A stretch of 10,030 nt of DNA, taken from a virus (lineage: Duplodnaviria; Heunggongvirae; Uroviricota; Caudoviricetes). The stretch is from the IMG/VR virus record IMGVR_UViG_2711768072_000012; one strand, given 5' to 3'. The translations under genes were made by a program, and so were the position numbers. The notes under the pieces are model-generated. The model did not search any database, was not told the origin of the DNA, and saw only the letters and a list, made by a program, of their open reading frames with translations. Positions 2,568 to 9,729 of the stretch are shown here, piece by piece (the stretch's first letter is position 1; each line of letters opens with the position of its first letter).

Positions 2568-2589
2568 AAGCACGGTGTTCGGGGGTTTT

Positions 2590-3552
2590 ATGAGCAGCAA
2601 GCTTCATGGTCTTGTCTGGGAAGGGTGCGCCTTCACCGGCATGATCTTATCCAGGGTGGCGGTTATGGCCCGTCTTGCAGACTACAGCAATGACGAGGGC
2701 GTGTCATGGCCTGCCATTGAAACTATCCGGCGTCAGATCGGTGCAAGAAGTGAATCCACAGTGAAATCGGCTATTGCAGAACTGGCGAAAGAGGGCTGGC
2801 TGACGAAGGAAGAGCGTAAGGTCGGTGGGCGTAATGTAAGCAATATCTATCGACTTAATGTGGAAAAACTCGAAGCAGCTGCGGCGGCGGCGCGTGAGTC
2901 ATATAAACCGAAAAGAAAAATTAGCCCGGCAAAAAATGACCCGTTAACAGTTGACCCGTCAAATATTGACCCCTCAACGGTTGACCCGTCAAATTTTGAT
3001 GGATCAACTGTTGATAAAAAACTGCCGATTAGGGGGGCGATGATTGACCCCGATCCGTCAGTATTAAAACCTGATCCGTCAGATAAAAGATCTTCTTGTC
3101 CGGACGCTTCGCAACCGGACCCGCAGACGGCTGAACAGGATTTTTTAACCCGACACCCTGACGCGGTTGTGTTCAGTGCGAAAAAACGCCAGTGGGGAAG
3201 TCAGGAAGATTTGGTGTGCGCACAGTGGATCTGGGGACGAATCGTGAGTCTTTACGAGCAGGCGGCCAGCTATGATGGCGAGATCACTAGACCGAAAGAA
3301 CCCAACTGGACAGCATGGGCCAATGACGTTCGCACAATGCGGATGCTGGATGGCAGAACTCACAGACAAATTTGTGAAATGTTTGGGCGTCTCCAGCGGG
3401 ATTCGTTCTGGGTAAAAAACATCATGAGTCCGGCAAAACTCCGGGAAAAATGGGATGAACTGGTTATCCGCCTGGGGCGTTCGCCTGCGCAGCGTTGCGT
3501 GAATCACATTTCTGAACCGGACACTGAAATACCGCCGGGATTCAGGGGGTGA
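2590..3552 (+). CDS. ydaU: YdaU-like replication initiator (lambda O-like replisome organiser) carrying internal iterons
   Basis: N-terminal winged-helix-like region, then a repetitive DPxxx linker encoded by tandem 15-bp DNA repeats. Sits immediately upstream of a DnaC-like loader gene. ATG 2590 chosen over the track's GTG at 2575. Confidence 0.75.
   Translation: MSSKLHGLVWEGCAFTGMILSRVAVMARLADYSNDEGVSWPAIETIRRQIGARSESTVKSAIAELAKEGWLTKEERKVGGRNVSNIYRLNVEKLEAAAAAARESYKPKRKISPAKNDPLTVDPSNIDPSTVDPSNFDGSTVDKKLPIRGAMIDPDPSVLKPDPSDKRSSCPDASQPDPQTAEQDFLTRHPDAVVFSAKKRQWGSQEDLVCAQWIWGRIVSLYEQAASYDGEITRPKEPNWTAWANDVRTMRMLDGRTHRQICEMFGRLQRDSFWVKNIMSPAKLREKWDELVIRLGRSPAQRCVNHISEPDTEIPPGFRG
2936..3025. 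repeat. Six tandem 15-bp iterons (consensus tTGACCCGTCAAnnn): probable prophage origin of replication inside ydaU
   Basis: Units start at 2936, 2951, 2966, 2981, 2996 and 3011; the last two are degenerate. An A-rich tract and four GATC sites (3002, 3052, 3073, 3089) follow. This is analogous to lambda ori inside gene O. Confidence 0.6.
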
Positions 3553-5702: not shown

Positions 5703-6341
5703 ATGAAGATGAAAAACATGTCTGAAGTGTTGACCCAAGAAAAGCTTATTTTTGTTGCCCAGAGACTAAAGGCCCTCGCGCAGTCAGGCCTGACCTATTC
5801 AAAAGACGTCTTTGACAAGGAACGCTATGAAGCCTTGCGTGAAATTGCCGCTGGACTGCTGAGTTCGCAGTTTGATATTAGCCGCAATGATTTGTTTCAT
5901 GTATCGGAAACGGGTTACGCGACGCCCAAAACAGATGTGCGTGCGTTTATCCTGCGTAATAATCGTATTCTGATGGTGAAAGAGGCTGCAGATGGATTAT
6001 GGAGTCTTCCTGGCGGATGGGCAGATGTTGGAGATACACCTTCTGAAGCTGTGCGTCGAGAGGTCGAAGAAGAAACCGGATTAAAAGTCAGAGTGACTAA
6101 ACTATTGGGAGTTTGGGATCGTAATCTTCACGGCCATCCGCCTTTACCCTGGCATGTTTACAAGCTGATTTTTCTCTGTGAAGAAGTAGGTGGCAGCCTG
6201 TCAATCAGCCATGAGTCACTCGATGCTGATTTTTTTGATGTCAACGACCTGCCTGAATTGTCGCTTTCAAGAATTGTGCCTGAGCAGATTGCTGTCAGCC
6301 TGAGAGTAGCGAAAGGTGATGAAAAAACATGGTTTGATTAA
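5703..6341 (+). CDS. NUDIX hydrolase with N-terminal extension
   Basis: Nudix box GGWADVGDTPSEAVRREVEEETGL fits Gx5[E/D]x7REUxEExGU with D at the first acidic position. An ~80-aa N-terminal domain precedes it. Start is ambiguous between ATG 5703, 5709 and 5718; SD is weak and the upstream region is AT-rich. Confidence 0.8.
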   Translation: MKMKNMSEVLTQEKLIFVAQRLKALAQSGLTYSKDVFDKERYEALREIAAGLLSSQFDISRNDLFHVSETGYATPKTDVRAFILRNNRILMVKEAADGLWSLPGGWADVGDTPSEAVRREVEEETGLKVRVTKLLGVWDRNLHGHPPLPWHVYKLIFLCEEVGGSLSISHESLDADFFDVNDLPELSLSRIVPEQIAVSLRVAKGDEKTWFD

Positions 6342-6370
6342 CTTTCTTCTGCAACCATTAAGGAATGGCA

Positions 6371-7009
6371 ATGATATTCAACGCTAAGGGTTTTTTATTC
6401 GATATGGACGGTACGCTGGTTGATTCAACAGCCGTAGTGGAAAGCGTCTGGAGAGATTTTTGTGCAGAATACGGTCTTGATACTCAGGCTGTGATTGCTT
6501 ACGCACACGGGCGGCAAACGATTGATACACTGACGCATTTTATTGGTGCAGGTGAGAAAACCAATAAAATCGCGGCCTCACTCGAAGAGGTTGAAATCAA
6601 CACGACAGAAGGCGTTACTGAAGTAAAGGGGGCCGCTGCACTCTTATCAAAACTGCCACCGGATAGCTGGGCACTTGTCACTTCTGCAGGCAGAATGCTT
6701 GCCGAAAACAGGATGAAAGCGGCTAATCTCCCCTTACCCATAGTAATGGTGTGTGCAGAAGATGTAATGACGGGAAAACCAAGTCCCGAGGGTTACATCA
6801 AAGCAGCTTTGGCTTTGGGCCTTGAGCCTGGTGAATGCGTGGTATTTGAGGATGCATCTGCGGGTATAAAAGCAGGGCTGGCAAGTGGAGCTTCGGTAAT
6901 AGCTGTTCAGCCTGACGCTCTGGGATCATCTGAAGCCCATGCCGTCAGCGAACTGTCTGACATTATGGTCAAGATTTCCGGAGAACGTTTCAATATCATC
7001 TGTGGTTAA
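6371..7009 (+). CDS. HAD-superfamily hydrolase (beta-phosphoglucomutase/phosphatase-like)
   Basis: HAD motifs: FDMDGTLVDS (motif I), VTSAG, TGKPSPEGY (Lys motif) and FEDASAGIKAGLASGA. ATG 6371 is preferred because AAGGA at 6360-6364 gives a 6-nt spacer; the track start is 6365. Lies 23-29 nt after the NUDIX stop. Confidence 0.8.
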   Translation: MIFNAKGFLFDMDGTLVDSTAVVESVWRDFCAEYGLDTQAVIAYAHGRQTIDTLTHFIGAGEKTNKIAASLEEVEINTTEGVTEVKGAAALLSKLPPDSWALVTSAGRMLAENRMKAANLPLPIVMVCAEDVMTGKPSPEGYIKAALALGLEPGECVVFEDASAGIKAGLASGASVIAVQPDALGSSEAHAVSELSDIMVKISGERFNIICG

Positions 7010-7093: not shown

Positions 7094-7272
7094 TAGAAGG
7101 TTAGCTTGCGTCGGACTTGGCGTATTTAAAGAAGTGCTGGTGGTGACTGGTTGTTGTGTTCCATTTCTACAGAACAAAATCACAGAAACTATACCCAATA
7201 GTTGTATTGAATCACTGACGAGACAGCCTCATATTTATCAGGACTGGTGTACGTCCAATACAGGAGGTTGTG

Positions 7273-7729: not shown

Positions 7730-7797
7730 GAGACCAGGCGAGGGAGAAATCCCTCGCCACCTCTGATGTGTCAGGCATCCTCAACGCACCCGCACTT

Positions 7798-7820
7798 AAC
7801 CCGCTTCGGCGGGTTTTTTA
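7798..7820 (+). terminator. intrinsic terminator (UUCG tetraloop hairpin + T6) ending the hok transcript
   Basis: TAACCCGCTTCGGCGGGTTTTTT: stem CCCGC/GCGGG, extendable to 7 bp, with a TTCG loop and six Ts. Confidence 0.7.
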
Positions 7821-7867
7821 TTGGTTGACAAAATTATGAATATGCACCAATATCTTGGTTGACAAAA
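7821..7867 (+). promoter_or_regulatory. Two direct copies of TTGGTTGACAAAA (each containing a TTGACA -35 hexamer): candidate promoter/operator of the downstream cassette
   Basis: Identical 13-mers at 7821-7833 and 7855-7867, 34 bp apart, between the hok terminator and the first cassette gene. Confidence 0.4.
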
Positions 7868-7902
7868 GTCGTTTTTTGCACGGATTAGGCGGAGAAGTGT
7901 CT

Positions 7903-8496
7903 ATGCAGAACCATCCATTCCCTTGGGAGTTCTTTCCTGAGTTAACAGAGGAGCGTTTAACCATTATAGCTGAGGAGTTGCTCAGGATACAGGATATTAC
8001 TCATGAGTTATTGTCATCGCCCTATGATGATAATTACACTCGTGGTGGTTGTACATTTGGGCGTCAGCGGCAGGCGTTGCTACAAATGTGCGTACGAAAG
8101 ACATATGACTGGTTAAGACTACTTAATCCTGGCATGGATCTTACGTTTTCAATTGGGAATGTCCCTATTCGTTTCTTTACTGATGACGCAGATAACCCCA
8201 AGAAACGCGGTTTTTTCAAAAGAAATGATGCTGATCGACTCTTTGAGTCAGAGGAGACTACTCCAACTATGCATCGCTTTGTGGTTGAAAAGCCTGAATT
8301 TGAAGGCGAGGGTGGTAGAGTCATTTTTAATGGCTATAACGTGTTTGGTGAGATCGTGTCAACTTGGACATATGGTGCGGACCGTGTTGTTATGCTGAAC
8401 TCTGTCGATGATGTACCTCCAGCACCGGTACCTATCGAACTAGAACCTATCAGTGCGTCTAAGACTGAGAAGGAAAAGAAACAAAATAGCAAATAG
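7903..8496 (+). CDS. uncharacterised protein (~197 aa), upstream partner of the HTH-peptidase; candidate effector/toxin
   Basis: ATG at 7903 with GGAG at 7891-7894 (8-nt spacer); the track's 7855 start is TTG inside the repeat. Acidic, no TM segment, no catalytic motif recognised, with a Pro/Lys-rich tail. Stop lies 10 nt before the next gene. Confidence 0.65.
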   Translation: MQNHPFPWEFFPELTEERLTIIAEELLRIQDITHELLSSPYDDNYTRGGCTFGRQRQALLQMCVRKTYDWLRLLNPGMDLTFSIGNVPIRFFTDDADNPKKRGFFKRNDADRLFESEETTPTMHRFVVEKPEFEGEGGRVIFNGYNVFGEIVSTWTYGADRVVMLNSVDDVPPAPVPIELEPISASKTEKEKKQNSK

Positions 8497-8506
8497 TGGG
8501 TGAAAT

Positions 8507-9628
8507 GTGTTTAACGGTACTAATTTAAGACTTGCTCGTCTGTATCACGAGCTATCTCTGGAGCAGGTTGCTGAGAAGGTTGAAAAAACACGCCAGTATG
8601 TACAGCGACTGGAGTCTGGTTCAGCTACTCCATCCCCAGAGCTTATAAATAAATTAGCCGAGGTTTTGCGCGTGAAGCCCGCCTTTTTCGAAGGGCAGGA
8701 ACATTCTCCTGTTAATGAAGAGATTGTACATTTTCGTAAACGCGCCTCGACAAGGATGTCAACGAAGCTATCAACACTCGCTAAGGCTGAGTTTTATCGT
8801 CGTTTTATTGATGTATTTGAAGATAACCTTAATTTGTCACCTGTTCGATTTCCTGAATTTCGTGTCCATACACAAGAAGATATCGAGCGAGCGGCAGAAA
8901 AATGTCGTATTGAGTGGGGCTTAGGCTTTGGCCCAATTGAAAATATGACTCGCCTTGCCGAGAAACTTGGGGCGTTTGTTACTTCATTTGACTCCGTTTC
9001 GGATGAAGTAGATGCACTGTCTGTTCCTCTGCGAAGGCCTTTTATTGTTCGAAATACAGCTAAAAATTCACCTTGTAGGCAACGCTTTGATATTGCTCAT
9101 GAGGTTGCCCATTTGATTCTTCATGAAGGAATTTCTACTGGGGATAGATTAACTGAATCCCAGGCAAACCGTTTTGCCTCTGCTCTGTTGCTTCCCAGAA
9201 CGTCGATGGCGAAATATTTTCCAAGACCTGTGGGGGGGAGGATAAATTGGCAGGGACTAAGCCAATTTAAGTTGACATGGAAAGTAAGTAAGGCTGCCAT
9301 TGTTTACAGGGCTCATCAATTAGGACTTTTGACTGATGAGCAGTACAGAACTGCATTTATGGGGTTGAAACGGAAAGGGGAAGCTATTGATGAAAAAGAA
9401 GATTATCTAATCCCTCATGAGCGTCCTGAGTTATTCCGTCGGGCTTTATCGTTTTTATTTGAAGAGTTAGGATACGACCCACAGCGTATAGCTGATGAAA
9501 TGGATATAGAAGTGGACATTTTTTATGAGTTAGTAGGAGATGATCTTCCTGCGGTTCATGAACTGCCAGGAAGTGGTGATGTTGTTTCACTACAATCTTA
9601 CCGAACTCTTAGAGGCAAAATTCACTAG
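8507..9628 (+). CDS. XRE-family HTH fused to ImmA/IrrE-type (M78, COG2856-like) zinc metallopeptidase (373 aa)
   Basis: N-terminal HTH (LSLEQVAEKVEKTRQYVQRLESGSATPSPELINKLAEVL). Zinc-binding HEVAH in IAHEVAHLILHE followed by ESQANRFASALLLP, the typical ImmA/IrrE signature. GTG start at 8507 with GGGTG upstream. Confidence 0.85.
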   Translation: MFNGTNLRLARLYHELSLEQVAEKVEKTRQYVQRLESGSATPSPELINKLAEVLRVKPAFFEGQEHSPVNEEIVHFRKRASTRMSTKLSTLAKAEFYRRFIDVFEDNLNLSPVRFPEFRVHTQEDIERAAEKCRIEWGLGFGPIENMTRLAEKLGAFVTSFDSVSDEVDALSVPLRRPFIVRNTAKNSPCRQRFDIAHEVAHLILHEGISTGDRLTESQANRFASALLLPRTSMAKYFPRPVGGRINWQGLSQFKLTWKVSKAAIVYRAHQLGLLTDEQYRTAFMGLKRKGEAIDEKEDYLIPHERPELFRRALSFLFEELGYDPQRIADEMDIEVDIFYELVGDDLPAVHELPGSGDVVSLQSYRTLRGKIH

Positions 9629-9631
9629 GCA

Positions 9632-9654
9632 TAACCCGCTTCGGCGGGTTTTTT
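9632..9654 (+). terminator. intrinsic terminator identical to the one at 7798-7820
   Basis: TAACCCGCTTCGGCGGGTTTTTT, a 23/23 identical copy, 3 nt after the cassette stop. Confidence 0.7.
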
Positions 9655-9729
9655 GTTTTACGTATTCTGGTTTACAATCTACAGGCCAGCCTGAACAACT
9701 GGCACCTGCTGCGCCAGCAGAGAAAGACG

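Follow-up and report, generated by a model that had tools for sequence, protein, structure and literature searches.

The window analysed here is a 10,030-nucleotide stretch of viral DNA (IMG/VR record IMGVR_UViG_2711768072_000012) from the early-right region of a lambdoid (Rac/Qin-like) prophage of E. coli. The cassette behind its hok terminator is, judged from profile matches, a RosmerTA defence system, composed of the toxin gene rmrT and the antitoxin/regulator gene rmrA, and this study concerns the direct repeats that stand between that terminator and rmrT. Two exact copies of the 13-mer TTGGTTGACAAAA are present in the window, both on the + strand, at 7821-7833 and 7855-7867 with their starts 34 nt apart; no further copies were found there when up to two mismatches were allowed. 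A first-pass annotation had described two identical 13-mers 34 bp apart, each containing TTGACA and both lying between a terminator and the first cassette gene, and all of this was confirmed: the hexamer is perfect in both copies, the hok terminator (7798-7815 plus a T-run) precedes them, the ATG at 7903 follows them, and the pair is conserved in >80 loci. Of 1000 shuffled versions of the window with dinucleotides preserved, only 7 held any exact 13-mer pair within 60 nt and, given the conservation in >80 independent loci, we consider a chance origin of the pair out of the question. Each 13-mer is block A of a larger unit plus flanking bases, amounting to half of that unit; block B, a second conserved block at a fixed distance downstream of each copy (aTGCAC at 7842-7847 and TTGCAC at 7876-7881), had been overlooked. 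The features of the cassette are as follows (PWM, position weight matrix; CDS, coding sequence).

7798-7818, + strand: intrinsic terminator of the hok (hokD-type) mRNA, from a terminator scan; stem 7798-7815, then a T-run; left edge of the cassette
7824-7848, + strand: unit 1, proposed operator O1; block A GTTGACAAA at 7824-7832, block B TGCACC at 7843-7848; PWM score 30.9 bits
7825-7830, + strand: -35 hexamer TTGACA, within block A of unit 1
7848-7853, + strand: -10 hexamer CAATAT, 17 nt after the -35; nAnnAT signature at the same place in 69 of 81 loci
7858-7882, + strand: unit 2, proposed operator O2; block A GTTGACAAA at 7858-7866, block B TGCACG at 7877-7882; PWM score 25.3 bits
7860-7862, + strand: transcription start predicted from the -35/-10 geometry, 7-9 nt past the -10; inside block A of unit 2
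7892-7895, + strand: Shine-Dalgarno sequence GGAG of rmrT, read from the sequence; 7 nt ahead of the ATG at 7903
7903-8496, + strand: rmrT, RosmerTA toxin, 197 aa; PADLOC RmrT PDLC03929, E = 5.5e-93; same CDS in RefSeq
8507-9628, + strand: rmrA, antitoxin/regulator, 373 aa; PADLOC RmrA PDLC03943, 4.3e-201
9634-9654, + strand: second hok terminator hairpin, 6 nt past the rmrA stop; right edge of the cassette

The rmrT and rmrA products

As in the PADLOC/DefenseFinder definition of RosmerTA, the RmrT and RmrA profiles matched over their full length, with the two genes 10 nt apart on the same strand. Pfam placed a helix-turn-helix (HTH) domain of the XRE type (HTH_3, 1.5e-12) at aa 7-61 of RmrA, with the recognition helix KTRQYVQRLE, and an M78 (ImmA/IrrE) peptidase domain (Peptidase_M78, 8.4e-17) at aa 151-269, with HEVAH at aa 198-202, so that RmrA has both the HEXXH Zn-peptidase and the N-terminal HTH of the RosmerTA family; H198, E199 and H202 were invariant in 50 homologs. 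In the AlphaFold2 model of RmrA (predicted local distance difference test score, pLDDT, 91), the closest structure to the peptidase found by Foldseek was CapP (7t5t), and the HTH superposed on the DNA-binding domains of CapH, DdrO, SinR and C.AhdI, matching the N-terminal domain of CapH at 1.3 A (34% identity). The window thus encodes, fused in RmrA, both an XRE HTH and a peptidase of the M78/COG2856 type. The linker between them (aa 62-83) had lower model confidence and holds an invariant H75-F76-R77, predicted as a short strand, which is a candidate self-cleavage or autoinhibitory segment. The predicted fold of RmrT contained no HTH, and its model gave no Foldseek match below E = 0.1, with weak likeness to restriction endonucleases only. 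Phage protection and neutralization of the toxin by the antitoxin have been shown for other RosmerTA members (Millman 2022; Ernits 2023). In the enterotoxigenic E. coli (ETEC) O6:H16 strain 2011EL-1370-2 (locus L074, 8689-9809), rmrA is annotated as two CDS of 738 and 357 nt, probably from a frameshift, with rmrT and the proposed operators intact.

A bipartite unit occurs twice upstream of rmrT

A genome scan with RmrA yielded 70 loci and a viral-contig scan 80 more, from which 81 non-redundant rmrTA loci, covering many Proteobacteria, were used. Across these loci the true unit is bipartite, 24-25 bp long, of the form GTTGACAAA-N10-TGCAC, and present twice per locus. A PWM alignment of 47 + ~60 loci described it as G1TTGACAAA9-N10-T20GCAC24, gap-free inside every unit, and the distance between the units was 34 nt in 40 loci, 33 in 33, 31 in five, 32 in two and 37 in one. 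The pair was found in the 170 nt upstream of rmrT in Enterobacterales, Pseudomonas, Halomonas, Stenotrophomonas, Acinetobacter and Betaproteobacteria, with unrelated flanks, and an unbiased self-similarity search recovered a tandem unit of period 31-37 in ~42 of 48 loci. The matrix was highly specific for this position: after units 1 and 2 the next-best site in the window scored 7.3 bits, and of the 91 hits that reached 15 bits or more across 394 kb of loci, 88 fell within 160 nt upstream of rmrT, with two more preceding a truncated rmrT. These comparisons establish the element, its anatomy and its conservation.

Where rmrA occurs as an orphan without rmrT, the element is missing too. At L013 and L015 (Photorhabdus) and L016 (Erwinia), rmrA homologs ~72% identical stand beside an MFS transporter or GNAT gene with neither rmrT nor the operator pair; these are orphan antitoxins or remnants.

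One unit carries the promoter

Unit 1 matches the sigma-70 consensus at 9 of 12 positions, including A2 and T6 of the -10, with TTGACA, a 17-nt spacer and CAATAT, whereas the hexamer at the same distance from the TTGACA of unit 2 is GGATTA (0/6 matches), which does not form a sigma-70 promoter. Homologs carry CATTAT, GATTAT, AATTAT, CAACAT and similar hexamers at the -10 position after unit 1, with A at hexamer position 5 in 81%. The consensus promoter scan had missed the unit 1 promoter because its rule demanded at least 4/6 matches per hexamer. The location of the -10 (A2/T6) across the loci, together with the distance from unit 2 to the ATG, was as follows.

After unit 1 only: 60 of 81 loci; median 41 nt
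After unit 2 only: 9 of 81 loci; 62-73 nt
After both units: 9 of 81 loci; median 72 nt
After neither unit: 3 of 81 loci; median 31 nt (2 loci)

The clades with the -10 after unit 2 are thus a minority, and in them the 5' untranslated region (UTR) beyond the pair is longer accordingly; the 5' UTR as such stays at ~30-40 nt whichever unit bears the -10. This covariation of 5' UTR length with -10 position independently validates the promoter call and shows that the other unit is not a promoter, and it establishes the promoter assignment. By this geometry the window has one predicted sigma-70 promoter, on unit 1, with a start near 7860. The first-pass annotation had considered the -10 elements weak, which is true of repeat 2 only, since repeat 1 is followed 17 nt downstream by CAATAT, at a place where 69 of 81 loci have A2/T6; nor did its choice between promoter and operator survive, because repeat 1 appears to be both. 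Two other promoter readings were rejected: a sigma-54 reading of GG...GC, judged by eye, has a spacing of 19 nt, not 10, and an extended -10 reading of TGCAC would place its TG at -17/-16.

The units that bear no promoter are nonetheless maintained. In them T2, T3 and C6 are conserved at 100%, A5 and G21 at 99% and C22 at 88%, so that blocks A and B are as conserved as in promoter units, whereas positions 25-30 hold almost no information (0-0.7 bits). Because block A and block B are kept in the non-promoter unit, TTGACAAA must be conserved for a reason other than its role as a -35. In the 81 loci these repeated conserved sites overlap the operon's own promoter, the units covering -35 to -12 and ~-2 to +22.

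Block B evolves in step in both units and follows the RmrA recognition helix

Block B varies by clade, and both units of a locus change in concert. Its forms comprise TGCACC, TGCACA, TGCATA, TGCAAG, TGCCAG, AGCAAT, AGTCCT, xCGAA, GGAAC and GAAAT. At positions 20 and 22-25 the two units of a locus shared more identity than in any of the 2000 shuffled pairings, and concerted evolution of block B is thereby established. The intra-unit spacer showed no excess within-locus identity (p = 0.2), which argues against simple homogenization or gene conversion. Every RmrA recognition-helix class pairs with one block B class, as listed here (helix, then block B).

QRLE: GCACC
VTRQYAHKLE / VSRQYAHKLE: GCACA / GCATA
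HKLE: GCAAG or GCCAG
CTRQYVHKVE: AGTCC
K[ST]KQ..SKLE: CGAA
SQLE: GGAAC

Site and recognition helix thus covary. Shared descent confounds this correlation, which is nevertheless retained within E. coli as well as within Pseudomonas. In Pseudomonas, VTRQ goes with GCACA and VSRQ with GCATA. In E. coli, one hotspot hosts two classes, namely KTRQYVQRLE with TGCACC in the window and KTKQFVSKLE with GCGAA at locus L003. L003 (NZ_CP145634.1, 3099-4900) is a second, strongly diverged RosmerTA (RmrT ~24% identical) in the same hokD-DUF968 slot of another E. coli, and its operator variant combines block B GCGAA with TTTACG as block A of unit 2. The window and L003 together constitute a natural specificity-swap pair in one E. 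coli hotspot.

A fully dyad-symmetric unit was considered and rejected. The palindrome is limited to a 4-bp core, CAAA-N8-TTTG (C6-A9/T18-G21); the sequences on either side of it lack symmetry, and variation is confined to the 3' flank.

Orphan copies of the element on phage contigs

A motif-first scan of viral contigs, for which ~3 chance hits were expected, returned 93 stretches. Of these, 40 had rmrA 675-725 nt downstream, five had rmrT but were truncated or decayed, ~9 were look-alikes and ~39 were orphan pairs. The element is therefore found also without a cognate regulator gene: on ~39 phage or prophage contigs a complete unit pair, with both blocks and a period of 33-34, stands with no rmrT, rmrA, related HTH or peptidase within up to 15 kb. 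The orphan pairs (L155-L247; for example L172 at 6071-6136, L155, and L210 at 7178-7243) are mostly GC-rich with block B TGCAAG, and they precede diverse phage genes or sit inside them; the GC-rich ones lack a -10. Some lie within an open frame that reads VDKSPxLQ twice, and the GC content at third codon positions dips locally across the element.

No gene or regulator common to the neighbourhoods of the orphan elements was found, the XRE open reading frames (ORFs) 8-9 kb from them have unrelated helices, and the orphan element with its flank had no match in INPHARED. At L183 (9591-9689), three tandem units (spacing 33 and 40) that share the block B TTGCACGA are followed by ~900 nt without an ORF of at least 60 codons on that strand. 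Possible readings of the orphans are RmrA-type proteins acting in trans, a different binder, or promoter remnants. Intact copies of the pair are carried by temperate phages of the same host groups, in some cases within coding frames and at the expense of codon bias. Much more speculatively, and in our estimate improbably, the RmrA-type HTH may read phage DNA directly, such that phage genomes would titrate or recruit RmrA and couple the recognition of foreign DNA to derepression or release of RmrT; the converse, phages bearing decoy operators, is also possible.

The cassette and its prophage surroundings

The hok 3' region up to ~7818 was found in 4524 of 5426 complete E. coli genomes and the cassette in only 23. 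Homology to cassette-free prophages ends at ~7818-7823 in the E. coli genome comparison; against MG1655 Qin it is lost at 7818 and regained near 9713. Since this homology stops at 7818, the repeats are the first bases of the inserted module, and with promoter and proposed operators opening the insert, regulation would travel with the genes when cassettes move. The 23 E. coli copies are all identical over 7819-7905 and offer no informative variation, and the cassette had no match among the public phage records of INPHARED.

On both sides of the cassette lies the hok terminator hairpin TAACCCGCTTCGGCGGGTTTTTT, a 23-nt direct duplication at 7796-7818 and 9632-9654 of the window, which also flanks the diverged RosmerTA of L003 in the same slot. 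This duplication suggests hotspot-specific insertion or exchange via recombination at the terminator. Flanking direct repeats were not seen in the RosmerTA loci of other species, and we rejected them as a general mobility signature because they are confined to the E. coli hok hotspot.

The gene order in the window is cro-like YdaS and YdaT, a replication initiator, a DnaC-like loader, DUF1627, DUF977, a NUDIX hydrolase, a HAD hydrolase, sok RNA and hok; sok was the sole Rfam match. The NUDIX hydrolase and HAD phosphatase (5703-7009) are cargo flanked by prophage replication genes and sok/hok, and in L001 and L074, prophages that share this RosmerTA cassette, the slot is taken instead by ParA plus a truncated hok. 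The ORF of the replication initiator (2575-3552) holds the direct repeats GTTGACCCGTCAAAT (twice, 30 nt apart) and GATCCGTCAG (twice, 21 nt apart), at 2950-2994 and 3052-3082 of the window, which are probably iterons of a lambda-like ori.

Discussion

We propose that the units are operators for RmrA autorepression flanking one sigma-70 promoter, and assign this reading a probability of about 0.6; binding by RmrA is what we infer from the sequence comparisons. The first-pass annotation had favoured operators for the cassette's own HTH, and this reading gained from the conservation of the pair with rmrTA, the equally strong conservation of promoter and non-promoter copies, the concerted change of block B and its tracking of the RmrA helix, with the binding itself still deduced. 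According to this proposal, 7821-7882 would be the self-contained control region of the rmrT-rmrA operon. The N-terminal XRE HTH of RmrA would bind both O1 (-35 to -12) and O2 (~-2 to +22); the two sites are separated by about three helical turns, and two dimers are the likely stoichiometry. On O1, RmrA would compete with sigma region 4, and on O2 it would block open-complex formation or promoter escape, and occupancy of both would keep the toxin-antitoxin operon at a low, autoregulated level. If RmrA follows the model of CapH/CapP, ImmR/ImmA and DdrO/IrrE, activation of its fused M78 peptidase could cut off the HTH and so derepress the operon; such relief of repression, which the first-pass annotation had also raised, is plausible because RmrA folds like CapH fused to CapP.

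Four points weigh against this proposal. The correlation between helix and block B is phylogenetically confounded; a near-invariant block A beside a variable block B is an asymmetry unlike a simple two-fold HTH dimer site; in distant actinobacterial RosmerTA, no upstream tandem repeat exceeded shuffles; and the ~39 orphan pairs mean that the element is not exclusive to RosmerTA, so that another factor could bind it. The last point favours a trans factor other than RmrA, a phage or host regulator, with RosmerTA making use of a portable temperate-phage element: these complete pairs stand before or inside diverse phage genes, at viral loci that lack RmrT, RmrA and any RmrA-like HTH or peptidase. 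We nevertheless judge such a factor unlikely, since the orphan loci share no alternative regulator gene, only rmrT and rmrA always accompany the element in rmrTA loci, and block B differs with the RmrA helix between variants in one E. coli prophage hotspot and likewise in Pseudomonas, which speaks against a host factor. It seems to us more doubtful still that RmrT or an RmrT-RmrA complex is the specific binder or obligatory co-repressor, in the manner of conditional cooperativity in type II toxin-antitoxin systems: the structural matches of RmrT are weak, and RmrA has an XRE HTH of canonical type, with a recognition helix that varies in step with block B.

Tandem promoters giving one transcript each, the other option of the first-pass annotation, would account for the perfect TTGACA in both units and for the -10-like hexamer after both in 9 of 81 loci, such as those of the Acinetobacter clade and the L119 clade. 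This is nevertheless very improbable and finds no support in the window, where the second TTGACA is followed by GGATTA and a start from it would fall at ~7894, inside the Shine-Dalgarno sequence; most loci, moreover, have A2/T6 after unit 1 only, and positions 25-30 of non-promoter units are nearly devoid of information. We give next to no weight to a reading of the repeat as a duplication by chance, as a scar of insertion or as an RNA-level 5' UTR element that plays no part in DNA binding. The 23-nt terminator duplication around the insertion and the probable transcription of unit 2 would go with it, but the pair is conserved in >80 loci with unrelated flanks whereas the flanking duplication is restricted to the hotspot in E. 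coli, the 5' UTR folds no better than its shuffles (z = 0.05), and unit 1, which is untranscribed from the promoter, has the same blocks.

Antitoxins with an HTH that repress their own operon through repeated, promoter-overlapping operators are textbook cases, exemplified by HipB and MqsA; HipB has four hipBA operators of the form TATCC-N8-GGATA, and the sites of MqsA and HigA are palindromes. The RosmerTA element resembles HipB-type autoregulation in its repeated operators over the operon's own -35/-10, and its CAAA-N8-TTTG core shares the N8 geometry of HipB sites. Unlike type II toxin-antitoxin operators, the RosmerTA units have little symmetry, pairing an invariant TTGACAAA block with one that differs by clade, and form direct repeats 33-34 bp apart; the -35 hexamer lies inside the conserved operator half, and the toxin gene comes first. 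The C proteins of restriction-modification systems (structures 1y7y and 2b5a) are small XRE HTH proteins that act on two adjacent sites at their own promoter, with C-boxes of two abutting palindromes within ~35 bp that mediate activation and then repression. Their HTH fold matches that of RmrA, whereas the centres of the RosmerTA units are 33-34 bp apart and show no sign of activation.

In ImmR/ImmA (ICEBs1) and DdrO/IrrE (Deinococcus), the likeness lies in the switch formed by an XRE repressor and a COG2856/M78 protease, and the difference in that repressor and protease are separate proteins and that their targets are an integrase or a DNA-repair regulon; each DdrO site (RDRM) is a single palindrome, unlike the paired RosmerTA units. 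In CapH/CapP, an XRE HTH repressor on a conserved site at the promoter of a defence operon is cleaved by an M78/IrrE-type Zn-peptidase, and 15 systems have a fused capH-capP (Lau et al. 2022, bioRxiv 10.1101/2022.04.27.489752). The RmrA peptidase is nearest to CapP and its HTH superposes on CapH, but RmrA combines both activities in one polypeptide and doubles as the antitoxin in a toxin-antitoxin defence system of two genes. CapH uses a single 22-bp site upstream of the -35, whereas RosmerTA has two 24-bp units over the -35 and the start site, and CapP responds to single-stranded DNA. For Rosmer-like systems, regulation by HTH cleavage has only been suggested (Ernits et al. 2023), and no description of a RosmerTA promoter or operators was found in the literature searched. 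The self-regulation proposed here is of an ordinary kind, expected for an HTH antitoxin and not yet described for RosmerTA; the unusual details are the -35 embedded in the operator, the possibility of a promoter in either unit and the copies on phage genomes.

RosmerTA is a validated anti-phage system that is mechanistically uncharacterized. The copies of the element on phage genomes free of rmrTA are a lead towards its trigger, and if RmrA does read phage DNA, the operator would be part of the RosmerTA sensing mechanism. The analysis provides a precise cis element for the whole family, a helix-by-site table from which specificity can be predicted, and natural specificity-swap pairs, and it thereby makes RmrA DNA binding, autoregulation and any peptidase-driven derepression directly testable.
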